Part shown: piece after piece, positions 11,076 through 62,120 of the stretch | Numbering within the stretch: position 1 is the first letter of the stretch | Layout of the letters: each line of letters opens with the position of its first letter | DNA from: Ignavibacteriota bacterium | GTDB lineage: Bacteria; Bacteroidota; Ignavibacteria; UBA10030; CAVZMI01 | DNA length: 64,000 bases | Assembly: GCA_963776275.1 (NCBI GenBank) | Contig: CAVZMI010000021.1 | Span: forward strand, 96,001-160,000 | Reading direction: 5' to 3' | Translations under genes and position numbers: made by a program | Notes under the pieces: generated by a model | The model's input: the letters and a program-made list of their open reading frames with translations, nothing else | Told to the model about the DNA's origin: nothing | Database searches by the model: none

Positions 11076-11113
11076 AGATAATCCCACATCCACTATTAAA
11101 GACACATTAGACT

Positions 11114-36836: not shown

Positions 36837-37969
36837 ATGGCGCGGTACTATCACGATACCACGTTGGAAAAAACATACTCAGGATTGCTTGAAGTCGAAG
36901 AAAGAGGGTTCGGTTTTGTCCGCACCCTTTCATTAACATTACGCCACCTTCCGACCGATCCCTATATCGCACCTCACCTCATCACACAATATCGCTTGCG
37001 CCCCGGCGTTTTGATTGAAGGAACGATCAGTATTGCCGGGAACGGCAAGTCCCAGGTCGATACTATAGAACGAATTAATAAGGTGAAGCCGGAACGATGG
37101 ATGCGCGTCGTCGAATTTTCACAGCGCACCGTCGTCAACCCGAACGAGCTCTTGAAGCTCGAGGGCTCTCACAACGACCCGGCGATGAGAATTGTGGATC
37201 TTATTTCTCCGATCGGGAAGGGACAGCGAGGTTTGATCGTCGCACCTCCCCGCTCGGGCAAAACAATGCTCCTCCAGCAGATGGCCCATGCCATAAGCAC
37301 CAATTATCCGAAATTGGATTTAATCGTTTTACTTGTTGATGAACGACCCGAAGAGATAACCGACATTCGCCGCGCCGTAAAGGGATTGGTATTTGCAAGC
37401 TCGCACGATGATCACCGGCTAAGCCACACACGTCTCGCGCAGCTTGTGCTTGATTATGCAAAACGACGAGCGGAGCTCGGTCGGGATGTCGTAATGCTGC
37501 TCGATTCTCTCACAAAACTCGGGCGTGCGTTCAATCTGACACAACGCAGCAGCGGCCGGACCTCTCCGGTGGAGTCGACGCCCGTGCACTCGAGATTCCT
37601 GAAAAAATATTCGGCGCAGCCCGCGCACTCGAGAATCATGGTACATTGACAATAATTGCCACCGCTCTTATCGAGACGAATTCGAGAATGGACGAACTGA
37701 TTTTCGAGGAGTTTAAGGGAACAGGAAATATGGAGCTCGTGCTCAGCCGCGAGCTTTCAAACCTGCGAATCTTTCCGGCAATCAATATTCTCCAATCCGG
37801 GACACGCCGTGAAGAACTATTATTCGGAGAAAATACTTACGTATACCAGACACTCCGCCGCGCTCTGGAACGAAAAAAACCTGTGGAGGCCATGAAATTA
37901 CTTCTTCAAGCTATTCAAAAGACAAAAACTAATGAACATCTCTTGGCCGATATAAAGAAGTATCTATAG
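36837..37969 (+). CDS. rho: Transcription termination factor Rho, short form (~377 aa); one-base deletion at ~37562
   Basis: GFGFVR, GKGQRGLIVAPPRSGKT, DERPEE, SGRT|LSGGVD, IFEEFKGTGNMEL, SGTRREELL. The two ORFs rejoin by adding one C. Confidence 0.9.
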
Positions 37970-40479: not shown

Positions 40480-41523
40480 ATGAAAGCATTCGTTCTCAAT
40501 AGCACCTGCGACCTAAATAAAAACAAAAATCCTCTTTCTCTGGTTGACATTTCCGATCCGTCGCCACGTGAGAATGAAATTCTTGTACGCATTTCAGTAT
40601 GCGGTGTATGTCATACCGAGCTTGATGAAATTGAAGGCCGCACTCCCCCTCCACATTTCCCAGTAATTCCCGGACATCAGATTATCGGACGGGTTGAAAG
40701 CTGTGGAAAAAATGTAAAAAATTTTTCAATTGGTGATCGCGTCGGTATTGCATGGATTCATTCAGCGTGCGGTAAATGCGAGTACTGCCGCCGGGGCGAC
40801 GAGAACCTCTGTCCTGAATTTGTTGCAACGGGAAGAGACGTAGATGGCGGATATGCAGAACTCGTGACGGTCCCTGAGGATTTTGCTTTTAATATCCCCG
40901 AGGAATTTTCCGACACTCAGGCGGCTCCGCTCCTCTGTGCAGGCGCCATCGGGTACCGCTCATTACGGCTCACCGGCTTGAACGACGGGCAGAATCTCGG
41001 ACTCACAGGATTCGGTGCTTCAGCACATCTCGTCCTGAAAATGGCGCGTCATCTTTTCCCGCATTCAAAATTCTTTATTTTCGCACGGAGTGAAAACGAG
41101 CGGGCTTTTGCCGGTGAAATCGGTGCGGCGTGGACAGGCGATGTAACCGACAAATCACCCTTGAAACTCCACGCGATCATCGATACAACACCGGTATGGA
41201 AACCTGTTGTCGAAGCAATGAATAACCTGGTTCCCGGCGGGCGTCTCGTTATCAATGCAATTCGAAAAGAACATCTGGACAAAGAATATTTACTCAATCT
41301 GGATTATACACATCATCTCTGGATGGAAAAGGAAATTAAAAGCGTCGCTAATGTCGCCCGCCGCGACGTATTGGAATTTCTTGCTCTTGCCGCTCAAATT
41401 CCACTGGCTCCGGTGGTTGAGATGTTCCCATTTGAGAAGGTAAATTTGGCACTTTTTGAATTGAAGGAAGGGATAATCCGCGGTGCAAAAGTGCTGCAAA
41501 TTGGAGGAGAAAAACATGGCTGA
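40480..41523 (+). CDS. Zinc-dependent alcohol dehydrogenase family protein
   Basis: CGVCHTE, GHQ, CGKCEYC…ENLC, APLLCAG. Confidence 0.9.
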   Translation: MKAFVLNSTCDLNKNKNPLSLVDISDPSPRENEILVRISVCGVCHTELDEIEGRTPPPHFPVIPGHQIIGRVESCGKNVKNFSIGDRVGIAWIHSACGKCEYCRRGDENLCPEFVATGRDVDGGYAELVTVPEDFAFNIPEEFSDTQAAPLLCAGAIGYRSLRLTGLNDGQNLGLTGFGASAHLVLKMARHLFPHSKFFIFARSENERAFAGEIGAAWTGDVTDKSPLKLHAIIDTTPVWKPVVEAMNNLVPGGRLVINAIRKEHLDKEYLLNLDYTHHLWMEKEIKSVANVARRDVLEFLALAAQIPLAPVVEMFPFEKVNLALFELKEGIIRGAKVLQIGGEKHG

Positions 41524-42334
41524 AGATTTTACCCACACGACATTAGGGAGGACAGGTATCACAGTACATCGGCTCGGACTCTCAGCGACATATTGGCCCG
41601 GCAAAAAAACCGTGTACAAAGCTCTTGATGAAGGGGTGAACTATTTTTTTGGGTTTGGGACCGATGGACAATTAATACGCGCGATACGGAGCGTCGTTGG
41701 GCAGAAGAGAAAAGATATTGTCATCGCAACAGGGGCGTATAATTTGTTGATCGGATATCCAAACCTTCGGCGAACGCTTGAGAAACGGCTTCGTCAATTC
41801 GGGACTGATTATATCGATGTATTTCTTTTTCTTGGAGTGACAAAAGAAAAAGATTTTCCGGCCGAGGCCCGTGAAGAGCTTGCCCGATTCAAAGAGGAGG
41901 GGAAGGTCGGCGCAATCGGCTTATCGTCACACGACCGCAAATTTGCCGGCAAGCTGGCTGCTGAGGGATCAATGGACGTGCTGATGATCCGCTATAATGC
42001 GGCACATCGTGGTGCAGAGCAGGATATTTTTCCTTTTGTGAAAGATCACAATCCCGGCATTACGAGCTATACGGCCACACGATGGACCTACTTGATCCGA
42101 AGATCGAAAAAATGGCCGACAGACAGGCCGATACCGACGCCCGGTCAATGCTACCGATTTGTTCTATCAAATCCGAATGTGCATCTCTGTCTGACAGCTC
42201 CAAGAAACATCAGACAATTCGAAGAGAATATAAAATCTCTTTCAGATGGACTTCTAAGCGAAGATGAAATGAAATTGATGCAGGAATATGGCGATGCAGT
42301 GCATCACACAAAAAAATGGTTTATGGGAGGATGA
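41516..42334 (+). CDS. Aldo/keto reductase
   Basis: LGRTGITV..LGL, LRQFGTDYIDVF, GKVGAIGLS; overlaps the ADH stop. Confidence 0.85.
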   Translation: MAEDFTHTTLGRTGITVHRLGLSATYWPGKKTVYKALDEGVNYFFGFGTDGQLIRAIRSVVGQKRKDIVIATGAYNLLIGYPNLRRTLEKRLRQFGTDYIDVFLFLGVTKEKDFPAEAREELARFKEEGKVGAIGLSSHDRKFAGKLAAEGSMDVLMIRYNAAHRGAEQDIFPFVKDHNPGITSYTATRWTYLIRRSKKWPTDRPIPTPGQCYRFVLSNPNVHLCLTAPRNIRQFEENIKSLSDGLLSEDEMKLMQEYGDAVHHTKKWFMGG

Positions 42335-42395
42335 TAAATGCATAGAAGATCTCCGTCATCCAGGGAAATGCCGGAGAATGGAAACCTTTTACTAT

Positions 42396-43028
42396 TTAAC
42401 GCAGCATTACCATCTTCTTCACAGAGTTCCACTTCGGCGTCGAGATTCGATAGAAATAAACGCCCGAAGAAACCGTTGTCCCGGTTTCACTTCTGCCATC
42501 CCAGGTTAATTCGATGTATCCCGAAGGGTATTCGTCGTCCGTGAGAGTCCGCACTTCGCGGCCGAGTGCATCGTAAATAACAAGCTTAACCTTCGATGCC
42601 ACCGGTAATTCAAATGCGATCTTTGTCGTCGGATTAAATGGGTTTGGGAAATTATCGTACAAATGAAATTCCTTCGGCGGACTGATTGTAAATGATATTT
42701 CCTTCATCCAACTCTGTCCATTGGCTGTTTTTATCAATGCTTTGATCTTCTGCTCTTTGCCGATTGGTGCAGACCGTTCAACTGAAAACAGAAACTCAGC
42801 ATCTTTTGATTGCTTCGCAAGGATATCTTTCAGCATGATTTTCGATGATTCAAGTTTCAACCATGACTGTGGATTCTGGATCTCAACGGTGACATTTTTT
42901 GCAGCGACCGCCGCCGTGTTTTCAACGGTCAGTGCGAACGAGTTGCCCTTTGAGTTATAAGGGATTTCGTATCCTTGAGCCAGGAGAATTAACGGCATCA
43001 ATATTGATATAATGAATATTGTTTTCAT
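42396..43028 (-). CDS. Small secreted protein: Ig-like (CARDB/NEW3-like) domain plus T9SS type-A CTD
   Basis: Signal peptide; LYDNFPNPFNPTTKIAFELP…IYDALGREVRTL…WDG…VSSGVYFYRI…KKMVMLR. Confidence 0.85.
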   Translation of the reverse strand: MKTIFIISILMPLILLAQGYEIPYNSKGNSFALTVENTAAVAAKNVTVEIQNPQSWLKLESSKIMLKDILAKQSKDAEFLFSVERSAPIGKEQKIKALIKTANGQSWMKEISFTISPPKEFHLYDNFPNPFNPTTKIAFELPVASKVKLVIYDALGREVRTLTDDEYPSGYIELTWDGRSETGTTVSSGVYFYRISTPKWNSVKKMVMLR

Positions 43029-43051
43029 AAAGCCCTTTCACAATTTAAAAG

Positions 43052-43143
43052 ATAACCACAAAGGTCACAGAGTTATAAATGAGTACACGGAGTATCGACC
43101 TCTGTGAACTCATCTTTCCAACCTCCGTGTACTCTGTGGTTAT
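43052..43143. repeat. Interleaved inverted-repeat (REP-like) element
   Basis: ataaccacaaag/ctctgtggttat (1 mismatch), tcacagag/ctctgtga, gagtacacggag/ctccgtgtactc. Confidence 0.8.
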
Positions 43144-43151
43144 ATTTTTAT

Positions 43152-46100
43152 CTACGGCAAACTAAACTCCACCACATTATTCGTCGATAAGTTCTGTGCC
43201 TTATCCTGTTGAACTGTTCCCAACTTAACCCTGAATGTTAAATTCACCGGCAGTAACTCCTTGGTCACTTCGCCATTCACAGTGTTTCCAATCTGTCTCC
43301 ACGCACCTGAATAATAACTTGCCTGTGCATTATCAACCGGCTGGTTCTGTGCGTTTCTCACTCTCACAGTACATAATACTGTGGAAAAACTCACTGTATT
43401 ATTTGTTGAAATATCCTGTGACTTATCCATGGATATATATTCATGGGTCATTCTGAATGAATAATTATTGGGTAGCAGCTCTTTATTTGCTGTTCCACCA
43501 CTTGTTGTACCGAAACTCCTCCAGGCGCCCGAGTAATACTGTACCGTTCCCTGATCTATTAAACTGGCTTGACTGTTTTTCAACTGGACTATTGCATTGA
43601 CCGTCTGGAATACTACCGTAGGATTTGTACCGATATCCTGCTGTTTATCCTTGCTCGCATATGAATATGTCATTCTAAACGAATAGTTATTCGGTAACAG
43701 CTCTTTTGCTGCTGTTCCGTTTGTTGTAGTCCCGAAGTCTCTCCATGCTCCTGAGTAGTATTGCACAGTTCCCTGATCCATCAAACTACCCTGGCTGTTC
43801 TTCAATTGTACTGCTGCATTGACGGTTTGAAAAACTACTGTACTATTTGTTCCTATATCTTGCTGTTTGTCTTTGCTTGCAAATGCGTATATCATTCTAA
43901 ATGAATAATTATTTGGCAGCAGCTCTTTATTAGCGACACCATTTGCTGTTGTTCCGAAACTTCTCCAGGCACCTGAGTAATACTGGACTGTTCCTTGATC
44001 CATCAAACTACCCTGACTGTTCTGCAATTGTACTGCCGCATTGACTGTCTGGAAGACTACTATTGGATTTGTTCCTATCTCTTGTTGTTTGTCTTTGCTC
44101 GCATATGCATAGATCATTCTGAATGAATAATTATTTGGCAATAATTCCTTGTTTGCTACACCATTAGCAGTAGTACCGAATTCTCTCCATGCACCGGAGT
44201 AATATTGTACTGTTCCTTGATCCATTAAACTGCTTTGACTGTTCTGTAATTGGACTGCAGCGTTGACAGTTTGGAAAATTACTGTTGGATTTGTACCTAT
44301 ATCTTGTTGTTTATCCTTGCTTGTATAAGCATAGGTCATTCTAAATGAATAGGTATTTGGCAGCAGCTCTTTGGCTGCAATACCGTTTGTCGTTGTTCCG
44401 AAGTTTCGCCATGCACCGGCATAATATTGCACTGTGCCCGTATCTATCAATGCACCGCTACTGTTTTGCAATTGAATTTGCGTATTGACGGTTTGAAATA
44501 CTACAGTATCAATGCCGACCGGCACATTTGATTTTGTTTGTGTGCCGTACTCGTATGTCATTCGCAGACTTAAGGTTTTTTGGTTTGTAGTAATGGTGAA
44601 TGTACCGTCGTTGTTATTTATTGCATCTTTCCAGGCGCCTTCGTAGTACTGAAGTGTGCCACTGGTGAGAATCATACCACTGCTGTTTACAAATTTTATA
44701 ACGCATCCTGTTACTTGCGGCTGCGGCTTGATGTAGAAATGGATGCCGTTTGATTCTGCCGATCCATCGGGATTCTTTACAGTAACTACCGGAGAATCGA
44801 CGGCAGCGAGATCCGAAACGATTATAGATGCTTGTAGTAGTGTGTCTTTTATAAATGTCGTCGACTTTGCTGTTCCATTCCAAAACACCGTTGAGCCACT
44901 GACAAAGTTTTTGCCAGTGACACTTAGTGTAACGGTGCCACCCCCGACATAAGCAATGGCGGGACTTAGTGATATGATATTTATTAATTTAGAAAGATCG
45001 ATGTTGACGGAACGCTCTTCTTTAGGCAAATAGTAATAAAGCATGTTGGGATAATTGTCGAAGACCAAGACCTTTCCATCGGGCGGTAAGTTAAGATTTT
45101 GCAAAATGGTTCCTGTTTTGCCATCAAAAACAGAAATTCTCCCGGGATGTAAGTCTTTATAATTGGAGTGCCTGGAGGTTTTCTCAATGATCCAGGGTGT
45201 TTCTTCAATAATGACATACTTCCCGTTGCTAGATAAATAACTATGTTCAGCTAATGGAAAAGGAATTAGACCATAGACAGTATCTTTATCAATATTATAG
45301 ACAGCAAATTTTTTATCTTCCATTTGTTGTCTTGGATATAAAAAACATAAAAGATAATTTCCCTTTTTACTATCTGCGACATCGTATCCACCGGGAACAT
45401 ATATGTCGGACAATTTTCGATTAATAATAAGCTGCTGTGTAAATAATGAGTACTTGCCAATTGCTCTGCATTTCTGATTGTCCCTATTTTCTGAGTATAG
45501 GTAATTCCCATCAGCCGAGACAGAGCTTATCGAAGTAATCCAAGCTGGAGGAACTGGCAAGGTATCAAGAACTTTAAATGTGGAAGCATCATAAACAGCA
45601 GTCTTCTGGAAAATAAACAGGCTATCCCAAAGCCCTGAATAATCTGATCTGAGAAAATCAGTTGTCCACGTCACATAGAATACATTCTTGACGGGATTGT
45701 ACACTATTCCATCGAGTATGCTTCTGCCATCTCTTGATAGGTTATAAAACCTTGTGAATGATTGTACTTTCCCAACTGGTTGAGAAGGATCGTCAAATAA
45801 CCTATGACGTTCAAAATGTACCCTGCCAATTTTTTGCGTTGTATCTTGTTCAGGGAAACGATGATTAACCCCAATATTGTTTGTGTTAATGACATCCGCA
45901 ACGAACACCGGATACTCACGTCCTCCTGCATCTCCATATGTAAAGACCCAACTTTGTGTCGGATCCCATGATTCTAATTTAGCGCAGCAAACGGTATCGG
46001 TATAGAACAACTCATTTATATTAGTCTGTAGATTGAATCGCCAAAACTTTTCCGCTTCTTTGGCATCGCTGTAATAATAATATGGTTGCGCAAATACTTG

Positions 46101-46157
46101 ATATGTCAGGCATATCATTAGCGACAACGTCATCCACAAGCATTTTTTCATTTTCAT
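43152..46157 (-). CDS. 1001-aa secreted protein: predicted beta-propeller-like N-terminus, IPT/TIG-like domain, seven 74-aa tandem repeats
   Basis: Signal peptide ending VFA-Q; ISLSP…VTLSVTGKNFVSGSTVFWNG…VTVKNPDG (IPT/TIG-like); repeat core QYYSGAWR.FGTT.NG…KELLP..YSFRM. Confidence 0.8.
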   Translation of the reverse strand: MKMKKCLWMTLSLMICLTYQVFAQPYYYYSDAKEAEKFWRFNLQTNINELFYTDTVCCAKLESWDPTQSWVFTYGDAGGREYPVFVADVINTNNIGVNHRFPEQDTTQKIGRVHFERHRLFDDPSQPVGKVQSFTRFYNLSRDGRSILDGIVYNPVKNVFYVTWTTDFLRSDYSGLWDSLFIFQKTAVYDASTFKVLDTLPVPPAWITSISSVSADGNYLYSENRDNQKCRAIGKYSLFTQQLIINRKLSDIYVPGGYDVADSKKGNYLLCFLYPRQQMEDKKFAVYNIDKDTVYGLIPFPLAEHSYLSSNGKYVIIEETPWIIEKTSRHSNYKDLHPGRISVFDGKTGTILQNLNLPPDGKVLVFDNYPNMLYYYLPKEERSVNIDLSKLINIISLSPAIAYVGGGTVTLSVTGKNFVSGSTVFWNGTAKSTTFIKDTLLQASIIVSDLAAVDSPVVTVKNPDGSAESNGIHFYIKPQPQVTGCVIKFVNSSGMILTSGTLQYYEGAWKDAINNNDGTFTITTNQKTLSLRMTYEYGTQTKSNVPVGIDTVVFQTVNTQIQLQNSSGALIDTGTVQYYAGAWRNFGTTTNGIAAKELLPNTYSFRMTYAYTSKDKQQDIGTNPTVIFQTVNAAVQLQNSQSSLMDQGTVQYYSGAWREFGTTANGVANKELLPNNYSFRMIYAYASKDKQQEIGTNPIVVFQTVNAAVQLQNSQGSLMDQGTVQYYSGAWRSFGTTANGVANKELLPNNYSFRMIYAFASKDKQQDIGTNSTVVFQTVNAAVQLKNSQGSLMDQGTVQYYSGAWRDFGTTTNGTAAKELLPNNYSFRMTYSYASKDKQQDIGTNPTVVFQTVNAIVQLKNSQASLIDQGTVQYYSGAWRSFGTTSGGTANKELLPNNYSFRMTHEYISMDKSQDISTNNTVSFSTVLCTVRVRNAQNQPVDNAQASYYSGAWRQIGNTVNGEVTKELLPVNLTFRVKLGTVQQDKAQNLSTNNVVEFSLP
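43155..44710 (-). repeat. Intragenic tandem repeat, 7 x 222 bp
   Basis: Equivalent cattc(t) positions at 43449, 43671, 43893, 44115, 44337 and 44559 are exactly 222 bp apart; a seventh degenerate unit lies at the C-terminus. Confidence 0.92.
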
Positions 46158-46178
46158 ATTGACCTCATTGTTTTAACT

Positions 46179-48590
46179 TTAACGCCACGGGTGATTAATG
46201 CGAAGACTATCGACGTCATCAGCATAATCTCTTGCCGTAATATTCTTACCTGTTCCTTCCGTACTTCTTGCCCAATAACCGGGTTTATTTTCCATTACAT
46301 CCGGTGGCTTCCAATCCCAATACCATGCTCCGATTCCACCATTATACTCGCAATACGCTTCGCAGTACCTCTCTTCTTCATCCAAAGGTGTATTTTTCGC
46401 TGTTTCGGTTGGGTCACGATAATCAAGATGGTAATTCGTCGCATCGTTGTCATAACAATATCTAAAATACAATTTTCCTTGCTGCACGTTAGTAACCCAA
46501 TTCCAAATAATATCATCACAGTCATAGTCATTATTATTATAGTACCAATTATTGGGATAATACCATGGTGAATTGATCTGCATCATTCCAAAATCCTGGT
46601 GGTCACCCCCTTGAAGGGGGAAATCGGGAGTCGTGTTATATTCTGTTTTGAAAGTAGACAACTTGGCGAATTGATTGAAGTGACTTTCATAGGATGCTAT
46701 GGCAGCATATTCATCTCCCTTGAGTTCCGCAAGGACAGTCGCCTTAGATGGATTCTGTCCTTTGATTATGAATGGATTCGATACGTCAGTCGTGTATTTT
46801 TTCTCATCCTTCTTTGTCGTAGCCTCTACATGAAGTGTTATCTGGTTGCCTCCGCGCATGTTGGCTTCACCATAAAGGTATTCACCTATTTCCAAATCCG
46901 TTGTATCCGAATTTGCACCTGATGCATCGCCTTTATAAGACTCAGTTGTATCATTCGGTGTCACATATCTATCTCTGTCTGATTTCCATTTTATCTTTAG
47001 TTCCCAATTAAAATCTACATCACCGCCATCGTAATTTTTTAAATATGCTTTAATCAAAGGCTTTGGCATTTTGGGTAGATTAGTCCCTTCGATTTTCTGT
47101 ATTTTCTGATCATCAGGAAGTGTATCCACCACTAACTCCGGCTTGCTCTTGATCGTCACATCAGCCACGGGTATCCTGCATGATTCTCCCCCTTCTATCG
47201 CGGTCGCCTCTATTTGTGCTAGTTTTGCACGTGATTCCGGCGAATTACTGGCATCTTTCATCACTCTGTTCAAGTTTGCTAAACGGGTTTCCACATATCC
47301 TATAATTCTATCAAATTGGGATTTGTTTTTGGCTATCTCTCTCCTATCAAACAGTCTCTTCTTTAACTTTTCAGCCGAACGGATCGAAGATCTTACCTTG
47401 CTCGTAGTATCTATTGAATATGTACCTTTTTTTTCACTGTTACTCGCCTGTTGGTTCTCGTGCGAACTATTCCGCATCTTCACCATCAATCCCGCAGGCA
47501 ATCGGTGTGTATCGATCGGTTCATTTTTTATCGATCCAGCACCCCCGCCACCACCTGCTCCCTCCGGATAAGCCTCTATCTCTGCCACAACGGAATCAGC
47601 ATCAATACTGTCAGCAGCCACAAATTCGAACGGTTGCTGACCATAGAGGTAAGAACCTTCATCGCCAGTTATCAATGAGCGCAAAAAACCATAGCTCTCG
47701 TCGCTATTCATCCAAATACTGAAATTGGTTTCTGGAGGGTACTCGATAAGAGCACCATCTGATTGAAGGCCCATAATGTTTATAGCGTCTGTATCACCGG
47801 GATTGATCTCTGCTTTTGATACATTTACAACCGTACAGAGTTCCGGCATGTCCGGGACTTCGACAGAAAGCCAGCGCAAATCACTATAGCCATAATAGGG
47901 GCCCCAAAATGCTGGATCGCTTACCACTCCATCACATGAAGCAGTCGTATATGGGTGATCTATTCGATAACAAAGATCTGCCGCACTATTAGTATACGAT
48001 AGTGTTACATTCCGAGCCCGATAAGTAAGGCCTTCGCAATCAGGAACTCCAATTGTAATGGTCACTGAGTCTCCGGCATGGAAATATCCAAGATCAACAT
48101 ACCAATCCTTGTTCCAGAAGGGATCATCATAACTTAGTGTCCAGTAAGTACCGGCACCGCAAAAAAAGGTTGAATCCATCGTTCTTTGATAAAATGCATC
48201 CTTCGCATTATATGAAAATCCAGGCTCGATGCCTTCGGTTCTGATAATCGGACCAAAGGTGACAATGCTACAATAACTACAATCAGCGTCAGTATAGTTA
48301 AAATAAGGTCCAAACCACCAACAGGCCATGTAGCCAATTCTATTAAAGTTCTGCCTCAGTCGAAGAGTACCGGGAGCTGTAAAGTAGATCCTACCATTGT
48401 ATTCATTATCGGGTAGTTCACTCGCATTTTGCAGAATCGTAGCCGGTGTAATTTTTACCCGCTCTCTAATTTTAACCTGGCTATTGGCAGTAGTTGAAAT
48501 TAAACCGGTGATAATCACAACGATTAGAAACTTCAACAATCGTAAGTTTCTAGAATCCTTTCGAGTGAGAAAATAAATTCGAGATGTCAT
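46179..48590 (-). CDS. 803-aa secreted protein with C-terminal lysozyme-like / lytic-transglycosylase-like domain
   Basis: Signal peptide (…ANS-QVKIRERV); C-terminal AAIASYESHFNQF…FGMMQIN…NVQQGKLY…YNGG…YADDV matches SLT motifs ES / GxMQ / N…G / YNxG. Confidence 0.68.
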   Translation of the reverse strand: MTSRIYFLTRKDSRNLRLLKFLIVVIITGLISTTANSQVKIRERVKITPATILQNASELPDNEYNGRIYFTAPGTLRLRQNFNRIGYMACWWFGPYFNYTDADCSYCSIVTFGPIIRTEGIEPGFSYNAKDAFYQRTMDSTFFCGAGTYWTLSYDDPFWNKDWYVDLGYFHAGDSVTITIGVPDCEGLTYRARNVTLSYTNSAADLCYRIDHPYTTASCDGVVSDPAFWGPYYGYSDLRWLSVEVPDMPELCTVVNVSKAEINPGDTDAINIMGLQSDGALIEYPPETNFSIWMNSDESYGFLRSLITGDEGSYLYGQQPFEFVAADSIDADSVVAEIEAYPEGAGGGGGAGSIKNEPIDTHRLPAGLMVKMRNSSHENQQASNSEKKGTYSIDTTSKVRSSIRSAEKLKKRLFDRREIAKNKSQFDRIIGYVETRLANLNRVMKDASNSPESRAKLAQIEATAIEGGESCRIPVADVTIKSKPELVVDTLPDDQKIQKIEGTNLPKMPKPLIKAYLKNYDGGDVDFNWELKIKWKSDRDRYVTPNDTTESYKGDASGANSDTTDLEIGEYLYGEANMRGGNQITLHVEATTKKDEKKYTTDVSNPFIIKGQNPSKATVLAELKGDEYAAIASYESHFNQFAKLSTFKTEYNTTPDFPLQGGDHQDFGMMQINSPWYYPNNWYYNNNDYDCDDIIWNWVTNVQQGKLYFRYCYDNDATNYHLDYRDPTETAKNTPLDEEERYCEAYCEYNGGIGAWYWDWKPPDVMENKPGYWARSTEGTGKNITARDYADDVDSLRINHPWR

Positions 48591-48810
48591 TGCTTAAATT
48601 CTCTCTTTTCGGGATACTCTTCCCCACGAGAGATAATCCATCCAGCACAAGTACGTTTATGATTACGCTATTAACAAGGAAGCTTCCATTATAATACCGC
48701 AGTGAGTTACTATTTTGTGACAATTCAACCAGAAGCTGATGAAGCCTGGGGTAAAACTGGAATATTTTGCGTCTCTAACTCGTAGAGCCTATAATCAAAG
48801 GATGAAATTG

Positions 48811-48831
48811 ATCCTGAATTAAATTCAGGAT
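48811..48831. promoter_or_regulatory. Perfect 10-1-10 palindrome just downstream of the cassette promoter (operator or REP-like hairpin)
   Basis: atcctgaatt-a-aattcaggat. Confidence 0.6.
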
Positions 48832-48844
48832 AGAATACAACTGT

Positions 48845-48873
48845 AACTTAATGCTCGGGAATTGAAATGTCAA
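48845..48873 (-). promoter_or_regulatory. Strong sigma70-type promoter for the 48590-42396 cassette
   Basis: Minus strand TTGACA-17 nt-TAAGTT, ~250 nt upstream of the 803-aa gene. Confidence 0.65.
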
Positions 48874-49022
48874 GAACTTTATTGGAAAAAAGTGTAAAAA
48901 TTACGATAACCGGAAATATTAGAAGGCGCCGAAATTCGGCAATCATCAATCATAAATCGGCATTCTCTCGGCCATTTCCAAATTGACCCTCAGTAATCTC
49001 GTGCCTCCTCTGGAGCTTTGAA

Positions 49023-50519
49023 TCAGGGAGACAAATCAGAAGATGGTATTTCTGATACCGGAGATTTCCGCTGTAGAAGAGCTTTCAGAATGCCAATCTC
49101 CGCAGGATCGAAGAAGCGCATGAGAGCCATAAGCCCGATGAATCCAATCAGAAGTCCGATTTTGACAAGCATATGAGCATGGAGAGTGCCTCCGACCACG
49201 ACAAAGATACAGAAAATTATTCCTGTCGATACGGCAATTACGCCCATTCTTCTGAATTCGTATCTGACCGGGTAATATCGTTGAACAATAAAATAGAGCG
49301 ATAGCGCCATTACAATGTAACCGCCGAGAGTCGACCAGGCCGCGCCTACAAACCCGAGCAAAGGAATCAGCAACAGATTCATCCCGATATTCGTCACGGC
49401 ACCCAGTCCTGACGTCAGTGGAAGAAATTGAGTTTTTTTCTCGATATAAATACCCGGTATCAGGAGAACATAAACTCCTGTAAAGACATAGGCGAGGAGC
49501 ACAATGGGAACGATGCCGAGTCCCGGCCAGTATGCAGGATGAATTAACCGGTGGTGTAAAATTTCAATACCGACAAGGTCGCCGATAAAGAATGAGATCA
49601 CCAGAAAACCAAACATTAAAAGAAGGAAAAAGTACGTGGCGATGCGCGCAAACATTTTTTTCGCATCCGGCTCTTTTGCATTCGAAAGGAAGAAAGGACG
49701 CCAGGCATAATCGAACATCGACACAATCAGCATGATAAAAATTCCCAGCCTATAGTTTGCCTGATAGATGCCGACCGATGCATCATCGGTGAGCGCCCGG
49801 AGAATCGGCCTGTCGATAACCTGAAGCGCAATGCCGGCGAGTCCTGCCGGGACGTATGGCAGACCGAATTTCAATAATGCCGAAAAGAGCTTTGAATTTT
49901 TCGGCCATGCGATATGACGGATAATTGTGGGGAAAAGACAGAGTGCCGTAAAAAGAGATGAAATGATCCCGCTTACGAATATTCCCGCCACGCCCATCCT
50001 GAATTTTGCAAGAAGAATGGCATTTAATACAACATTTAGAATGATGCCCGCAACCCGGATTCCCGCAAACTGCCACGGCCTTTTCTGTAATCGTAATGCC
50101 GCAAACGGTATCAATGAAACTGCATCGAAGAAAAGAATCCCGACGGCGTAAATCACGATATATCGTTCCTGTTCACCACGTGCTACCAGATATGAAAGCG
50201 GAGTTGCATTCCAGAGAATAAGAAGAGAAAAAAGAACAGAGCCGATAGTCACGGTCAGCCACGAGAGTCCGAAGACTTCTTTTTCATCGCCAAGCTCTCG
50301 AGTGGATGAATATTTAAAAAAAGCCGACTCCATGCCGAGGCCGTATACAACATTGAGAAATGCTATATAGGAATAGACATTTGCAACAACGCCGTAATCA
50401 CTTTTCGGAAGGATATTCGTATAAAGGGGAAGAAGAAGGAAACTCAGAAATCGCCCGAGAATGGTACTGATACCATAGATGGCTGTTTCTGCGCCGAGTC
50501 GTTTGATTTTATCGAACAT
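49023..50519 (-). CDS. Oligosaccharide flippase (Wzx/RfbX family)
   Basis: Polytopic membrane protein; TAIYGIS..LGRFLSFLLLPLYT, DR.IL, VGIY. Confidence 0.85.
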   Translation of the reverse strand: MFDKIKRLGAETAIYGISTILGRFLSFLLLPLYTNILPKSDYGVVANVYSYIAFLNVVYGLGMESAFFKYSSTRELGDEKEVFGLSWLTVTIGSVLFSLLILWNATPLSYLVARGEQERYIVIYAVGILFFDAVSLIPFAALRLQKRPWQFAGIRVAGIILNVVLNAILLAKFRMGVAGIFVSGIISSLFTALCLFPTIIRHIAWPKNSKLFSALLKFGLPYVPAGLAGIALQVIDRPILRALTDDASVGIYQANYRLGIFIMLIVSMFDYAWRPFFLSNAKEPDAKKMFARIATYFFLLLMFGFLVISFFIGDLVGIEILHHRLIHPAYWPGLGIVPIVLLAYVFTGVYVLLIPGIYIEKKTQFLPLTSGLGAVTNIGMNLLLIPLLGFVGAAWSTLGGYIVMALSLYFIVQRYYPVRYEFRRMGVIAVSTGIIFCIFVVVGGTLHAHMLVKIGLLIGFIGLMALMRFFDPAEIGILKALLQRKSPVSEIPSSDLSP

Positions 50520-52932: not shown

Positions 52933-54930
52933 TTACTCCTTCGTCCGATGTAAAAGCGACTTTACAAGAATTTCAATATCGAGCGTCAACGACTGGTTTT
53001 TTGCATAATACAGATTGTACCGTTCTATTTCTTCACGCGTTGTTATACTTCGGGAATTGATCTGCACCATTCCGGTCAGTCCGGCTTTTCCAAGATAGAA
53101 TTCTTTCTTGTCGGTGTGTAAATTTTCGATTCCAATTGTTATTGGGCGACCGACAAAACTGTACGTTCCGCGCAGGACGAGAGGTACATTGCAGATTGCA
53201 GTTGCAAAGGCCGATAAATCTTTCGATCCAAGCAACTTCTTTAAATATACAAAAGGGTAAATCGAAATCAAAAGAAAAATTGAGAAAAGAAGGTCGAAAG
53301 TCCTTTTTGTAATGCGGTTGATGGGTTTATCAATATTATAGTCGATTTCTACCAGCGGAATATCGTCAAGTTGGTCGATATGTGTTTTGCCGATAATTAC
53401 TTCGAGGTTATTGGGTACGAGCCGGAAATTCACCGAGCGCTCTCGACTACGTCCAATCACCGAGAGGATGTCGCCATAGGAAAGTGCGTCGGTTGAGAAA
53501 ATTACATCGGTCACTTTCGCTTCACGAATGACTTTGCCTATATTGTCGATACTCCCGGTGATCTCAACACCCGATACCTTTTCACCCAGCCTCTGACGAT
53601 TGATATCGATGAATCCGACGACATCGTATTCATCATCCGCATGAAGACGGATTTTTCGAAGTACTTCCTGCGCCGAAGAGCTTGTCCCCACAATCAGTGT
53701 GCGCCGGCCAAAGAACAATCTTTCACCGCTTCGACTGAGCAATCGGAGTAACAACCGCCATCCAGGCAAGAATAGAAGATTTTCAATAAATGAGATCCCT
53801 GTCACGGCTCTACTGAATCCGAAACCTTTGAAGAAAAAAACCAAGGCCGAGATGATGGTAAATCCGATCACCACAGCGCCCAATGTCCGCGAAATGGCAT
53901 GCCGCCGTTCGGTATATACACCAAGAAAATACATCGCCAGGACAAGAATCATCGGTGGGACGATATAGATGATTGGATAGGCATAATTTGGAAATGTCCA
54001 TAGCCGTCCCATCCAGATGAGTTCCCCGATTATTTGTGAAATATCGATCAGGATGATGTCACACAGGGGGATAATGCTGTTGCGAAATGCTTTCCATAGA
54101 AAAGCAAAGAGCGTGCGAATCACAATGCCACTTCTGAGAAGGGAAAGGCTGAACCAGGAATTGCTGAGATGTTTCCTGACAAATAAATGCATTGCCTGAT
54201 AAAATATCCTGATTTCATCAAGGTCGCTCCGTTTTGTGCTCTCGCCTTTATAATGTACTATTTGCGTCGAATGAACGTAAAATATTTTCCATCCTGCTTT
54301 TTGAATCCGATAGCACCAATCCAGATCTTCTCCATACATGAAGAATTCCTCATCGAGACCGCCGACCGTTTCAAAGATCCGACGCCGCAGCATCATAAAA
54401 GAACCGCTGATCGCATCAACCTCGTATGTTTCTTCAGGATTAAGATATGTGAGATTATATCGACCTAACAACCGGGAATTGGGAAAGAGCGAAGACAGAC
54501 CGATTATCTTTGTGAATGCAATTAATGGCGTTGGGAAACTCCTCCTGCATGCGATCTGGAGTGTTCCGTTAGGATTCAGAATCTTGCAGCCGGCCATGCC
54601 GACATCGGGATTCTTCTCAAAAAAGTCGACCATTACCTGGAATGTATTTTCCTGAACGATTGTATCGGGATTAATCAGTAATAGATATCTCCCTACCGCC
54701 CGCTGAAGGGCAATATTATTCGCCCGGGCAAAACCGATATTAATCTCGTTCAAAATGAGCTTCACCCCTGGAAACTTCGACCTGATAAGCTCAACACTTC
54801 CATCGTCCGATGCATTATCGACGACAAAGATTTCATGACGAAGATTTTCGGCGGCTTTCGAAATCGAGACAAGCGCGTTATCGAGGAACTCGCGGACGTT
54901 ATAGTTCACTATAATAATCGAGAGATCCAT
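52933..54930 (-). CDS. GT2 glycosyltransferase fused to membrane, Rossmann-like and degenerate sugar-transferase domains
   Basis: [33 protein letters not shown]; C-terminus KRTFD…GLTGMVQIN…SLTLDIEIL. Confidence 0.85.
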
Positions 54931-55650
54931 TTATGAAAGTCTTCCAATCAGACTATGCCACTTCAGTTTCCAGACCATGAAAATAGCCTCGTACACAATT
55001 TTCTTCGACATCTTTGAAACACCGACCCGACGATCTTCAAAAATAATTGGAATTTCGATCATCCTGAATCCTTTTTTCCATGTTTTGAAATTCATCTCGA
55101 TTTGGAAGGCATAACCGTTCGAGTGGATCGCATCGAGGTCAATATTCTCGAGAACTTTTCGACGGAAACATTTGAAACCGCCTGTTGCATCTTTAATTGG
55201 CATTCCGGTAATGATCCGCGTATAAAGATTCGCCCCATAACTGAGTATTAATCGTTTAAGCGGCCAATTGACAACAGTGACACCGGTAAGATATCTTGAG
55301 CCAATGACGAGATCATAATTCCGGATCTTTTGAAGAAAATTCGGGATTTCACGCGGATCGTGGGAAAAATCAGCATCCATCTCAAATACACAGTCGTAAC
55401 CATTAGTAAGGGCATATCTGAATCCGGCAACGTATGCCGTCCCGAGCCCTTTTTTCCCCTCACGTTCAATCAGGCTGATCCGGTTGTTCGCCGTCATCAT
55501 TTGCTTGACGATCGAGCCTGTCCCGTCCGGTGATGAATCATCGACAACAAGCACATGGAGCGACGATTCGACGGAGAGAACATCATCAATAATCTTCTGG
55601 ATATTATCCGCCTCATTAAATGTGGGTATGACTACAAGTGCTTTTTCCAT
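54931..55650 (-). CDS. Polyprenol monophosphomannose synthase (DPM1-like GT2)
   Basis: IPTFNE, VDDSSPDGT, GLGTAY, EMDADFSH, DATGGF, RRVGVSKM. Confidence 0.9.
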   Translation of the reverse strand: MEKALVVIPTFNEADNIQKIIDDVLSVESSLHVLVVDDSSPDGTGSIVKQMMTANNRISLIEREGKKGLGTAYVAGFRYALTNGYDCVFEMDADFSHDPREIPNFLQKIRNYDLVIGSRYLTGVTVVNWPLKRLILSYGANLYTRIITGMPIKDATGGFKCFRRKVLENIDLDAIHSNGYAFQIEMNFKTWKKGFRMIEIPIIFEDRRVGVSKMSKKIVYEAIFMVWKLKWHSLIGRLS

Positions 55651-55661
55651 TTTTCTCACTA

Positions 55662-56789
55662 TCAATTGTAATTGTCAGGAGTACGACGCATGCCAGAAAA
55701 TTCCTTGATAGCATCCGTTACATATACCAGTTGTTCATCAGTAAGTTCCGGATGAATTGGAAGAGATATCACCTCTGCCGCAATCTTTTCAGCCACGGGG
55801 CAGGCTCCCTTCCCGTATTTGAGATGAGCAAATGCCGGCTGCAAATGAAGAGGAATCGGATAATGGACTGCCCATGGAATTCCCTTTGTCTTCAAAAACT
55901 CTCCCAGGCCATCACGATTCTGAACTCGCAGTGTATATTGATGATAGATATGTCGGTTATATGGTTCCACATATGGCGTAATGACCTGTGCTCCACGAAG
56001 AAGGTTATTATACTTCCCAACGATTTTCCGCCGGCCTTCATTCCATTCATCAAGATATTTCAATTTCACGTTGAGAATTACCGCCTGGATTGTGTCGAGT
56101 CGGCTGTTGACACCCAGTATTTCATGTTGATATCTCACCCGCGATCCATGGTTGCAGATCATCCGCATTTTCTGACACCAAGTTTCATTATTCGTTACCA
56201 TCATACCCGCATCGCCGAATGCACCAAGATTTTTACTTGGAAAGAAGCTGATTGTTCCAATATCGCCAATTCCCCCGGCTTTTCTTCCTTTATATGTTGC
56301 TCCGACCCCCTGAGCATTATCTTCGATAACAGCAATTTTGTGCTTTCGGGCGATTTCCATTATCGTATCCATTTCCGCCGCCTGTCCGTATAGATGCACG
56401 GGAATGATTGCTTTTGTTTTCGGAGTAATTGCAGCCTCAATTTTAGACGCATCAATGTTATATGTTCGTTCGTCAATATCGACATACACCGGCGTTGCCC
56501 CGAGCAGTACAACCGTTTCCGCCGTCGCTACAAATGTAAACGGCGTTGTGACGACCTCGTCTCCGGATTTGATATTTAATGCCATCATCGCGACCTGTAG
56601 CGCATCAGTACCCGAAGCACATGCCACTGCATATTTGACGTCGAGATAGCTTGCAATGGCATTTTCAAGTTCTGCGACCTCTTTCCCGAGGATAAAATAG
56701 CCGGAATCAAGCACCCGCTGAATAGCCGAATCGAATTCAGATTTATGTTTTTTATACTGAAGTTGAATATCTGTCATTGGTACGATCAT
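55662..56789 (-). CDS. DegT/DnrJ/EryC1/StrS aminotransferase
   Basis: SGTDAL, VHLYGQ, EDNAQ, SFFPSKNLGAFGDAG, NSRLD. Confidence 0.93.
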   Translation of the reverse strand: MIVPMTDIQLQYKKHKSEFDSAIQRVLDSGYFILGKEVAELENAIASYLDVKYAVACASGTDALQVAMMALNIKSGDEVVTTPFTFVATAETVVLLGATPVYVDIDERTYNIDASKIEAAITPKTKAIIPVHLYGQAAEMDTIMEIARKHKIAVIEDNAQGVGATYKGRKAGGIGDIGTISFFPSKNLGAFGDAGMMVTNNETWCQKMRMICNHGSRVRYQHEILGVNSRLDTIQAVILNVKLKYLDEWNEGRRKIVGKYNNLLRGAQVITPYVEPYNRHIYHQYTLRVQNRDGLGEFLKTKGIPWAVHYPIPLHLQPAFAHLKYGKGACPVAEKIAAEVISLPIHPELTDEQLVYVTDAIKEFSGMRRTPDNYN

Positions 56790-56841
56790 CGGTCTTCCCT
56801 TGTGTGATAAATATCAGTTAATAAGTGATATGTCTTTCCCA

Positions 56842-57311
56842 AAGGAAAAATTAAAAATTATAAAGGAAAAAGTATTACATGACAAACACAAATTATTATT
56901 TCTTTGGTGAAATATTTCTCGAAATCTTCGACGTTATTGATCCTAATATCAACATTAACTCTTTTGCCTCACCTTGGATTTCTTTGATATCATCATTATG
57001 TTTGTTTTCAATCGCGGCTATAATTTTTATCCAATAGTTTGCTTCTCTAATTTCCTTCAAAGCGATATTGAGTTTATTCTTAAAATCTGCTCGCGATGAC
57101 GCAGCTTGAGCTTCCTCATAATTCGCTCCTACTGATGTTATAGCTTTGATCAGTTGATGCTTTATATCCCGTAATTCGACATCATTTGGTAATTTCCGGA
57201 GAAAAAGAATTACTCTGATTGTGAAATCAAATATCCTTTTATCTAGGTCTATGTTCATACATACATTGTAAACTTTTATAATTTTTAATTTTTACTTTTT
57301 AATTTTTCCTT
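56842..57311. repeat. AT-rich inverted repeats bracketing the four-helix-bundle gene
   Basis: aaggaaaaattaaaaa (56842-57) / tttttaatttttcctt (57296-311), 16 bp perfect; aaaaattaaaaattataaa (56846-64) / 57275-93, 19 bp perfect. Confidence 0.8.
56896..57258 (-). CDS. Four helix bundle protein (23S rRNA IVS protein-like family)
   Basis: QLIKAITSVGANYEEAQAASSRADFKNKLNIALKEIREANYW. Confidence 0.9.
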   Translation of the reverse strand: MNIDLDKRIFDFTIRVILFLRKLPNDVELRDIKHQLIKAITSVGANYEEAQAASSRADFKNKLNIALKEIREANYWIKIIAAIENKHNDDIKEIQGEAKELMLILGSITSKISRNISPKK

Positions 57312-57315
57312 GCTT

Positions 57316-58713
57316 TTACGCATGCCCTCTCCCCATCAACATGACATAGATCGTATTCAGAATGATTTTAATATCCATTCGAAGCGACATATTTTCGATA
57401 TAGAACAGATCGTACTGCAATTTTATTTTTACATCCTCGAGCGATTCATCATATTTATGCTTTACCTGAGCCCAGCCCGTAATTCCCGGACGGACCTTAA
57501 GTCTTCGCGGGTAGAGCGGAATTTCTTTCGATAATTTTTCGACAAAAAATGAACGTTCCGGCCGGGGACCGACGAGGCTCATATCACCCTGAAAGACATT
57601 AATGAACTGTGGGATCTCATCGAGATGTGCTTTTCTTAAAAACCACCCGAATGTCGTTACACGTGGATCTTTCTTTCCGGCCCACTGCGGGCCATATTTT
57701 TCTGCATCGCCCCGCATCGATCGGAATTTATAAATAATGAATTCCTTTCCATCTTTTCCAACACGTGCTTGTTTGTACAATACCGGACCCCGTGAATCGA
57801 TCTTGATGATCAGAGCTATGATCAGCCAGACCGGGAATCCGATGACAAGAACGCAGGATGAAAAACCGATATCGATGAGTCTTTTGAGGCTTTGTTCCCA
57901 AGGTGGCATGATTTCCGGCATAATTTCGATCAGCGGAAATCCATATATCTGATTCGTCCTTGCCTGACCGCTGATGATATCGTACATATCGGGCATTATT
58001 TTAATGCCGACATACTGCTCATCGCTATATCGGATTACTTCAAGCAGCTTCTCATGCTCGGTTGATTCAAGAGCTACGATTAATTCTTGAATGCGAAATT
58101 TCTTGATCAAGACAGGAAGGTTCTGCAGCACTCCGACAATACGTATATTTTTGTACGACATAATTTGTTTTCGTTTATCTGTGCGGACAAAACCGACGAT
58201 TGTATACCCGAGTGCAGGGTGCTGCTCGATCATATCGTACATATTTTTTGCCTTTTGAGACCAACCGATGATTAATGAACGGCGTAACCCAATACCCGCC
58301 CGAAGCAGGCGACGTTGAACACTCCGAATAGCGAGCCGACCGCCTCCGACAAAGAGCAGCATGATACCCCAGTAGAGCAGGATTAGCAGTCGCGAGATAG
58401 CCGGAGAGTTATTTGAAGTATCATCGATAAAGATGAGGAAAAAAAGGATTACGATTCCGATTGTGATGGTCTTGAATAAAAGCGCAAACTCGTCGAAGCG
58501 CGACTTTGCATACCAGGGACGGTAGAGTCCGACAAATGTGAAGAGGATCAGCCAGTAGCAATAGATGACGATCATCGGTACCCAGAGTTCCGGTTCCACA
58601 ACGTAGGCGATCCAATTCGATTCGATTCGTATGAGGTAATAGGCCACCCATGCGATGTTGATGGTCAGGAAGTCGATGAAAAAAAGCTGCAATTTATCCC
58701 GGAGTATTGTCAT
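57316..58713 (-). CDS. Undecaprenyl-phosphate sugar phosphotransferase (WcaJ/WbaP-like priming transferase)
   Basis: N-terminal TMs; KRLID, YKFRSM, DPRVT, DEIPQ, SLVGPRPE, PGITGWAQV. Confidence 0.92.
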   Translation of the reverse strand: MTILRDKLQLFFIDFLTINIAWVAYYLIRIESNWIAYVVEPELWVPMIVIYCYWLILFTFVGLYRPWYAKSRFDEFALLFKTITIGIVILFFLIFIDDTSNNSPAISRLLILLYWGIMLLFVGGGRLAIRSVQRRLLRAGIGLRRSLIIGWSQKAKNMYDMIEQHPALGYTIVGFVRTDKRKQIMSYKNIRIVGVLQNLPVLIKKFRIQELIVALESTEHEKLLEVIRYSDEQYVGIKIMPDMYDIISGQARTNQIYGFPLIEIMPEIMPPWEQSLKRLIDIGFSSCVLVIGFPVWLIIALIIKIDSRGPVLYKQARVGKDGKEFIIYKFRSMRGDAEKYGPQWAGKKDPRVTTFGWFLRKAHLDEIPQFINVFQGDMSLVGPRPERSFFVEKLSKEIPLYPRRLKVRPGITGWAQVKHKYDESLEDVKIKLQYDLFYIENMSLRMDIKIILNTIYVMLMGRGHA

Positions 58714-60968: not shown

Positions 60969-61073
60969 TAATGATGCAATTCAATGATTGAAAGGTACCA
61001 GCATTCTAGAACTTTCTCATTCATTAACTTTTTACCTTATTGAGAATGGGTCAATCTTGATGGGAACTACGGG

Positions 61074-62063: not shown

Positions 62064-62120
62064 CTAACCCTTTCAAAGATTTTGTCGACCGAGCGAATCA
62101 TCGTAATTTGGAAAAAAGGA

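Follow-up and report, generated by a model that had tools for sequence, protein, structure and literature searches.

A candidate polymorphic secreted hydrolase cassette of Ignavibacteriota and Bacteroidota in which a C-terminal head and the N-terminal half of its downstream partner are exchanged together

What is the role of three adjacent genes that specify, in order, a protein with a lysozyme-like C-terminus, a long protein ending in repeats, and a short protein bearing a type IX secretion system (T9SS) sorting domain? The genes, here called A, B and C, lie in a 64,000-nucleotide (nt) stretch of DNA from an Ignavibacteriota bacterium (assembly GCA_963776275.1, contig CAVZMI010000021.1, positions 96,001 to 160,000 of the forward strand; hereafter the window). 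A reading made earlier from the letters of the DNA (the sequence-only reading) had described three co-oriented genes, and all three were found as intact open reading frames (ORFs) on the minus strand, full length relative to their relatives: A (46179–48590; 803 residues), B (43152–46157; 1001 residues), which lies 21 nt downstream of A, and C (42396–43028; 210 residues), 123 nt after B. The analysis set out below puts at roughly one half the probability that A-B-C is a polymorphic secreted hydrolase system of Ignavibacteriota and Bacteroidota, made up of an effector, its partner, and a constant, T9SS-tagged accessory protein.

The window was compared with seven related loci (L001–L007; eight loci in total), obtained in a scan of one genome per species and all belonging to metagenome-assembled genomes of Ignavibacteriota or Bacteroidota. 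A homologue of A was directly followed by a homologue of B in all seven, and a homologue of C came after B in all four that extend that far (L002, L003, L004 and L007); the contigs of L001, L005 and L006 end inside B. None of the genes flanking the cassette in the window recurs in the seven loci, where the flanks are unrelated housekeeping genes. The three genes are therefore conserved as a unit; unlinked neighbours would, by the sequence-only reading's own criteria, have spoken against it. In L007 (8708–11358 of that locus), A is split into ORFs of 694 and 179 residues that overlap the start of B, the smaller piece matching the C-terminal end of the A protein of L006 (A_L006) with 42% identity; the split reflects either a frameshift or a stop codon.

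A word-index search with A returned four relatives, all named 'hypothetical', the best being 34–41% identical, while an exhaustive profile search returned 386 cluster representatives at E ≤ 1e-3 (195 at E ≤ 1e-10 and 69 at E ≤ 1e-30). Hidden Markov models built from segments of A were run on a family set of 160 sequences, consisting of 153 listed proteins (A included) and seven encoded by the loci (the listed protein P0003 duplicates A_L003). A constant core domain, CEN (residues 246–345 of A; 47556–47855, minus strand), was found in 118 of the 160, often in two to four copies each; a β-sandwich domain, MID, which travels with the head (residues 481–610; 46761–47150, minus strand), was found in 94; and a head of the soluble lytic transglycosylase (SLT) type was found in 97, always at the C-terminus. 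A further count showed 59 of the 160 to have CEN without an SLT-type head. The tails of 42 of these 59 were scanned against Pfam (five of the others had been scanned before and 12 had tails under 200 residues); seven matched Peptidase_C39_2 and one Peptidase_M74, the remainder having no enzymatic match. Clustering of the last 200 residues of 49 tails (≥120 residues) gave groups of 7, 7, 6, 6, 5, 4, 4 and 2 plus eight singletons, so that the family has at least nine head groups when the SLT type is counted. One of the seven-member groups is the C39 set. The group containing the tails of A_L006 and A_L007 includes the M74 match and conserves GGHxH, HxxHRxGxSVD and another His, and is taken here to be LAS-like; an invariant HExxH occurs in two groups, that of A_L003 and P0003 and that of P0005. 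Profile searches of the PDB with two other head types (A4 and A5) gave no head matches. In some relatives (for example P0004, P0039 and the A proteins of L001 and L004) a piece resembling residues 168–222 of A lies between the β-sandwich and the SLT-type head, an arrangement designated MID-N-SLT.

The boundary between the constant and the variable part is sharp. A_L003 and the listed protein P0002 are 96% identical over 436 residues and unrelated beyond a junction motif: per 30-column window, identity falls from 29–30 to 3–8 right after C-N-S-T-A-x-V-T-I-E. In A the corresponding motif, CRIPVADVTI (residues 471–480; 47151–47180, minus strand), ends the constant part, and C471, A476, V478, T479 and I480 are invariant in an alignment of the family (A1), giving C-x4-A-x-V-T-I as the consensus. 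The variable C-termini behind a constant front that had been sought among homologues of A are thus a feature of the family.

Comparison of the loci showed the exchangeable module to extend beyond A. It spans ~2.4 kb (44727–47150, minus strand), and comprises MID and the head of A, the 21-nt gap, and the signal peptide, propeller and Ig-like domain of B. MID and the SLT head were covered to 84–100% in L001, L002, L004 and L005 and to 8–55% in L003, L006 and L007; for the B propeller, the values for the same two sets of loci were 99–100% and 4–16%. Head and propeller were concordant in 7/7 loci and uncoupled in 0/7. The repeats of B were kept in all seven, and C in all four informative loci. The N-terminal part of B in L003 has HEAT repeats in place of the propeller, while the B proteins of L006 and L007 share their N-domain (51% identity) and the A proteins of these two loci share a head type. 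The C proteins of L002, L003 and L004 are 76–84% identical but L003 alone differs in both the head and the B N-domain, which argues that the exchange is not simply clade structure. At the DNA level, L003 and L004 match at 77–80% over the B repeats and C and at 81% in a patch of the A core, with no match from the rest of A through the N-terminal half of B. This break, together with the coverage pattern, places the exchangeable unit across the A/B boundary, with constant sequence on both sides. That the downstream gene should change along with the head as C stays constant was the sequence-only reading's own test; this was seen in all seven loci, for the N-terminal half of B only.

The architecture of B agreed with what had been proposed for it (signal peptide, propeller-like domain, IPT/TIG, seven repeats), according to both its sequence and a structural model. 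A signal-like N-terminus is followed by a β-propeller (residues 24–393), an Ig-like/IPT domain (394–477) and seven 74-residue repeats (478–1001). The model of residues 24–480, made with 30 sequences, had a predicted local distance difference test score (pLDDT) of 84.7 and a predicted template modelling score (pTM) of 0.81, and shows a multi-bladed β-propeller and then an Ig-like domain. Its best match in the PDB was to the YVTN propeller-PKD tandem that forms part of a surface-layer protein from an archaeon (1l0q, E 6.6e-13), and the next were to Lp49 and YncE. Residues 394–475 match the NCBIfam family CoaZ_rpt, a 'choice-of-anchor Z' Ig-like repeat (E 2.5e-22); no Pfam family was found on B. 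The repeats are spaced at exactly 74 residues (a DNA period of 222 nt) and matched no family even in a relaxed Pfam search. Searches of the ESM Atlas provided leads only: arrays resembling CarboxypepD_reg for the repeats (score 0.90), and a best score of 0.86 for residues 24–395.

The binding of the head to the propeller was modelled using residues 471–803 of A and 24–480 of B, with separate alignments, three runs and three controls. The median score was 0.55 (runs: 0.58, 0.55 and 0.37) and that of the best control 0.01; the runs shared at least 42% of contacts, with a partner pLDDT of at least 82. The mark applied is reached by 58 of 80 solved complexes and by 2 of 110 mismatched pairs, and scores of 0.60 or less were recorded for only seven of the 80 solved complexes, plus both passing mismatches. 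The A:B multimer check advocated in the sequence-only reading therefore returned a pass, but one in the weak-score band, where a score is more often wrong than right unless there is a good prior. Joint exchange gives some prior, so the odds of binding were moved modestly, and the balance tips slightly towards an A head that binds the B propeller. It might also be that B is not a binder of the head but an independent protein, such as an adhesin, and that the joint change comes from adjacency on the exchanged segment. The variable parts are contiguous on the DNA, so linkage alone could give joint exchange; only three combinations of head and partner types occur among the eight loci, and the weakness of the binding prediction agrees with such an explanation. 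Were the B N-domain independent in function, however, recombination in the 21-nt gap or at the gene ends should uncouple the two parts, and no uncoupled locus was found among the seven; the complex controls, moreover, gave 0.00–0.01 compared with 0.55 for the pair. An independent B is thus considered quite improbable.

The head of A itself (residues 611–803; 46182–46760, minus strand) resembles the GH23 enzymes, i.e. goose-type lysozymes and family-1 lytic transglycosylases. An alignment (A2) of residues 471–803 with 30 relatives (31 sequences) has among its invariant columns G141, N143, P144, E165, F171, G198, W226, W228, N231 and Y279, and among its near-invariant ones S166, Q170, Q201, N280 and G282; E165 corresponds to Glu635 of A, the putative catalytic residue (codon at 46686–46688). 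These columns make up the motifs ES...QF, GxMQ, WNW..N...G and YNGG, and each of the GxMQ and YNGG residues (G198, Q201, Y279, N280 and G282) is kept in 90% or more of the 31 sequences, some of them without exception. When the A2 profile was compared with the PDB, the matches at E < 0.01 were goose-type lysozymes only (1gbs, 0.0025; 153l, 0.0052; 3gxk, 0.0079), with the ES and GLMQVD motifs aligned; the ES of the head also aligns with that of cod g-lysozyme and that of Slt70. An hhalign run of a 90-sequence head profile against four E. coli catalytic domains, those of Slt70, MltC, MltD and MltE, gave E 4.6e-5 (probability 68.5%) across 109 aligned columns, the motifs ES, GxMQ and YNxG falling in register; a reversed-template control gave E 0.38. 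A2 against the single sequence of Slt70 found the right register with a non-significant score (E 0.052, probability 1%), i.e. the support from hhalign rose with deeper profiles. SLT was the sole Pfam family matched by the 31 members of A2 (six at E ≤ 0.05, best 6.3e-4), each of these matches falling short of the gathering score. The model of residues 471–803 (pLDDT 87.2) consists of a β-sandwich (model residues 15–141) and an alpha-rich head in which the ES glutamate stands at the end of helix 156–166. The lysozyme/SLT-like C-terminus claimed for A is therefore borne out by profiles and motifs, and the head is very probably a divergent GH23-type lysozyme or lytic transglycosylase domain. It shares with GH23 enzymes the order and register of ES, GxMQ and YNxG and, in the model, an alpha-rich secondary structure and a Glu at a helix end. 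Unlike them, it is very divergent, with WNW and YW-W motifs of its own and a large insert (residues 672–692 of A), and is fused to a β-sandwich and a long constant stalk.

Many envelope machines are accompanied by dedicated lytic transglycosylases, and a head with SLT motifs would also suit a housekeeping peptidoglycan-remodelling enzyme with its regulator, for instance one opening the wall for such a machine, C then being an unrelated neighbour. The relatives' heads are, however, replaced by peptidase-type domains, no machine genes adjoin the cassette, the context differs at every locus, and C is linked in 4/4 informative loci. Housekeeping remodelling is accordingly rated very unlikely, the least probable of the explanations considered.

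The front of A, which remains constant as the head changes, has a signal-like N-terminus, an N-region of 208 residues with 7 Cys and 38 aromatics, CEN, a GGGGG linker (at residue 346) and a charged helical stretch (352–470), the head motifs ES, GMMQ and YNGG being at residues 635, 668 and 749. The domain order suggested for A (signal peptide, Cys/aromatic-rich N-region, GGGGG, helical segment and C-terminal domain) was thus essentially right. CEN was present in 7/7 loci (42–51% identity, coverage 89–96%), and is probably Ig-like, judging from weak matches of relatives to intimin/FdeC and Invasin_D3. At the predicted mature N-terminus of A lies a family-wide motif (residues 38–49, QVKIRERVKITP; 48444–48479, minus strand): of the 134 family members that start with Met, 28 have Q-[VI]-K-I-K-E-R-V-E-I-x-P immediately after the signal-like stretch, and these include SLT and non-SLT heads alike; a relaxed form of the pattern occurs only six times in the remaining 87,462 residues. 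MID was modelled with a pLDDT of 87, and Foldseek matched it to β-sandwiches only (best E 1.3e-3). Searches of Pfam and NCBIfam gave no family above threshold on A (none in NCBIfam at E ≤ 0.1): its N-terminal part had only a chance-level Pfam match below the cut-off (DUF7947, E 0.084), and a relaxed Pfam search of the N, CEN and MID parts found nothing credible. The comparison of whole A and whole B with the PDB by phmmer returned only an insect lysozyme (E 0.066) and noise.

C is the candidate connection with the T9SS. It has a signal-like N-terminus, an Ig-like domain (residues 18–125) and a T9SS type-A C-terminal sorting domain (CTD; residues 126–210) that exceeds the curated cut-offs of both TIGR04183 (36.8 bits vs 23) and PF18962 (Por_Secre_tail; 29.4 vs 27). 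The composition proposed for C, an Ig-like domain plus a type-A CTD, thus proved correct; C also matches FlgD_ig and, weakly, the Ig-like NPCBM_assoc/NEW3 (residues 30–96). A and B have signal-like N-termini and gave no match to any CTD family in Pfam or NCBIfam (for the last 82 residues of B, no CTD family in Pfam even at E ≤ 5), in keeping with the view that they have Sec signals and no CTD. A Gln directly follows the predicted signal-peptide cleavage site in A (48477–48479), B (46086–46088) and C (42975–42977), and stands after the signal-like stretch in the 28 family members with the QVKIKERVEI motif. A Gln in this position is known as the Q-rule of Bacteroidetes, which, in the part of the source drawn on here, is described as not valid across the whole Fibrobacteres–Chlorobi–Bacteroidetes (FCB) group (PMC5837995). 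The pattern is seen here in Ignavibacteria-type genomes. The sequence-only reading had also pointed to a PorZ-like gene. A PorZ-like T9SS component was found at 23655–25178 (minus strand; NF052228, E 4e-70, model positions 243–757), but it scored 237 bits, under the cut-off of 260, and is apparently split from its N-terminal part; this ORF is the sole T9SS component visible in the window. In L002, 2 kb downstream of the cassette (17052–18344 of that locus), lies a gene whose product contains the T9SS plug first domain (PF17116, E 3.5e-12); no such gene was seen beside the other cassettes. Among 27 relatives of the C N-domain, seven (P0207–P0213) are 88–94% identical, whereas the closest relative of the B N-domain is 64% identical and those of A 34–41%. 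Close relatives thus seem to keep C and not this A and B, which fits rapid turnover of the variable module.

These observations suggest the following scheme. A would be exported by Sec, its constant front carrying an exchangeable C-terminal head, and in the window this GH23-like head would use Glu635 to cut peptidoglycan in its glycan strands. B would also be Sec-exported, with a propeller plus Ig-like half specific to the head type; we infer that this half binds the head and, as an immunity protein or inhibitor would, holds it inactive while it is in the periplasm of the producer. The constant seven-repeat half of B would act as a scaffold, and C, with its Ig-like domain and type-A CTD, would connect the set with the T9SS and with the surface of the cell. 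Head and propeller, adjacent on the DNA between constant sequences, are exchanged together as a single ~2.4-kb module. What the data show is this joint exchange, together with the architecture, the conserved cassette, the polymorphic head and the sharp junction; cleavage of peptidoglycan, binding and inhibition of the head by the propeller, any use against other bacteria and any part of C in export are proposals.

Alongside the contiguity of the module and the low band of the complex score, several results weigh against this reading or its parts. Head type was counted to change 31 times on a tree built from 89 core domains, compared with 33.15 ± 0.86 times in 500 label shuffles, 22 of which gave 31 or fewer. 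The tree is of a 90-column domain, with 49 of 87 branches at or above 80 in the Shimodaira–Hasegawa-like approximate likelihood ratio test, and its near-absent head-type signal may reflect frequent exchange or, equally, poor resolution; counting head swaps from it was given up, the resolution being too low. The head of A scored 13.3, 16.5 and 15.0 bits with Pfam SLT, under the gathering cut-off of 21.3. Foldseek searches with the two-domain model of residues 471–803 gave β-sandwich matches with no lysozyme in the top 50 from the PDB, and a single phage SLT-domain protein, at rank 31 (E 0.021), from the BFVD. These structure searches did not probe the head since the β-sandwich dominated the matches; of the HHpred/Foldseek check proposed for residues ~610–803, therefore, the profile part favours GH23 and the structural part leaves the fold unconfirmed. 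Neither the window nor the four loci with sequence beyond C contained orphan head or partner modules. B, being 1001 residues long and constant in one half, does not resemble known immunity proteins. The heads with a recognisable family or motif are all of extracellular-hydrolase types (glycosidase or peptidase), and none is of the nuclease or deaminase type typical of polymorphic toxins. Finally, a secreted lysozyme alone cannot reach the wall of a Gram-negative target.

Part of this evidence would suit a complex, displayed on the surface or released, that feeds on wall debris, in which the head sets the bond specificity, B is a matched binding or regulatory scaffold, and C anchors the whole via its CTD. 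The recognisable heads (GH23-like, C39-like, M74/LAS-like and HExxH) would all serve such a purpose, the best structural match of B is a surface-layer propeller-PKD tandem, and B and C consist largely of the Ig-like and repeat domains typical of surface proteins. There are, in addition, no small immunity genes and no orphan modules, and the cassette lies among housekeeping genes without mobility genes. However, a 96%-identical front with an unrelated head, plus joint replacement of the partner, is the pattern of conflict systems and is seldom seen in catabolic enzymes; A and B have no CTD of their own; and the sharp, recent exchange of heads is less well explained by feeding. Such a complex is the main rival explanation, a possible one though less probable than the polymorphic system. 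A stronger version of the polymorphic-system reading would make A-B-C an antibacterial system of a new type in the FCB group, either independent of contact or borne on the surface. In it the exchangeable unit would span the A head and an inhibitor domain in B, both mounted on constant scaffolds, and C would take partners that lack a CTD through the T9SS in trans, possibly by way of QVKIKERVEIxP, the conserved mature N-terminus, as a handle; the observation bearing on such carriage is the conserved linkage of the three genes. This version is regarded as doubtful, more so than the feeding complex.

In contact-dependent inhibition (CDI; CdiA-CT/CdiI) and Rhs modules, a short conserved junction motif precedes a variable C-terminal domain. 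The cassette resembles them in having a conserved body, a junction motif, an unrelated C-terminal domain and an adjacent downstream coding sequence that changes along with it, i.e. an exchangeable unit between constant sequences. It differs in its secretion route and body, in lacking orphan modules, in having heads that would act outside the cytoplasm, and in that the part resembling an immunity protein makes up the N-terminal half of a protein that is long and secreted. Nearest to the cassette in the literature are the TANFOR polymorphic toxins of Bacteroidetes, which, in the account drawn on here, have a signal peptide and no CTD and for which export by the T9SS has been proposed, not shown (PMC7073777). 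Like A, they have a Sec signal, no CTD of their own, and a constant N-terminus with variable C-termini, and, as in the cassette, genes for CTD-bearing T9SS substrates lie nearby (PMC7073777). No N-terminal family of NCBIfam or Pfam was found on A, however, the library being assumed to hold a TANFOR model. The heads described for TANFOR toxins are nucleases, deaminases and so on (PMC7073777), whereas the recognisable heads of the A family are of cell-wall and peptidase types; here, moreover, the partner is large, with a constant repeat half, and not a small immunity protein, and the CTD protein is a fixed 210-residue member of the operon. The third comparison, and a precedent for the part proposed for the propeller of B, is with Tsi1, a periplasmic immunity protein with a partial β-propeller that blocks the peptidoglycan hydrolase Tse1, the gene for this wall-degrading enzyme adjoining, as in the cassette, that of a Sec-exported partner (PMC3391265, as far as that source is used here). 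In contrast to that pair, the cassette has no type VI secretion system, A itself has a Sec signal, and B has a full multi-bladed propeller plus extra domains; inhibition by B is a proposal. Word searches of the literature, which are blind to sequence families, returned no description of the A family or of piggy-back export by the T9SS.

The region upstream of A was described in the sequence-only reading as having a TTGACA-17-TAAGTT promoter. The site is present (48845–48873, minus strand; TTGACA at 48873–48868, TAAGTT at 48850–48845), with a perfect –35 box, but its –10 box matches TATAAT at only three of six positions and so went unlisted in a consensus scan, which reported 19 promoter-like sites for 42000–49200, compared with 19.5 expected. 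Six of the eight loci have a TTGACA no more than 440 nt upstream of A, followed in L003, L006 and L007 by a 17-nt spacer and a TAxxxT box. The ~250-nt leader contains, a short way downstream of the promoter-like site, a perfect 21-nt palindrome, ATCCTGAAT-TTA-ATTCAGGAT (48811–48831, unstranded), which may be an operator and for which no conserved counterpart was found in the other loci. A scan of 41000–50000 with Rfam for a leader RNA returned no matches, and a scan for terminators found no site in the intergenic gaps of A, B and C nor directly after C.

The G+C contents of A, B and C are 0.422, 0.401 and 0.436, the 45 other ORFs of the window averaging 0.461 ± 0.028 with a minimum of 0.374. 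Of the description of the genes as visibly AT-richer, then, what remains is that A and B are so moderately, and not uniquely; C is not. The cassette is flanked by housekeeping or polysaccharide genes (TypA, alcohol dehydrogenase, aldo-keto reductase, a Polysacc_synt-type membrane protein, NadC and AccA). A genomic island was considered and rejected: no integrase or transposase was found among the flanking genes scanned with Pfam (up to three per side in six loci), nor in an NCBIfam scan of the window. To call the cassette inserted was therefore an overstatement, the flanks having no mobility genes and the G+C dip being modest. Matches to the PHROGs were confined to the B repeats, with none for A or C, and were all to unnamed families, so that there is no sign of phage origin.

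Elsewhere in the window, several housekeeping genes look split or truncated, within 16672–17917, 19223–19891, 36837–37969 and 23655–25666. fabF is in two ORFs (model positions 1–153 and 184–407), fabD begins only at model position 86, rho spans model positions 50–281 of 415 and is followed by a short ORF, and the first 242 model positions are missing from PorZ, a pattern that suggests frameshift errors in the assembly. A polysaccharide-synthesis cluster at 52933–63293 contains two polyprenyl glycosylphosphotransferases, glycosyltransferases (one of them the PEP-CTERM/XrtA-type TIGR03087), an aminotransferase and an epimerase, and the lowest G+C content of the window (0.36–0.37, at 61–64 kb) falls inside it. 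At the left end (1–5732 and 8800–11743) lie a hybrid histidine kinase, a second kinase and a sigma-54-dependent response regulator, then hutI, ftcD and fchA, for histidine degradation.

Polymorphic toxin systems are well known for type V, VI and VII secretion; for the T9SS they have been only a hypothesis, that made for TANFOR. The A-B-C cassette provides a compact, testable case, with a junction motif, a ~2.4-kb two-gene module, a partner domain and a single small CTD protein, and the analysis puts a name to a large unannotated family, that of A, the heads of which may include new types of peptidoglycan hydrolase or peptidase. If the feeding complex were the right explanation, the cassette would represent a modular wall-degrading surface complex in widespread sediment and soil bacteria. 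If, instead, the stronger version of the polymorphic system holds, the β-propeller would be added to the known folds of goose-type lysozyme inhibitors; the trans carriage by C would give piggy-back export by the T9SS its first worked example, and the system as a whole would be the first worked case of T9SS-dependent antagonism aimed at peptidoglycan.

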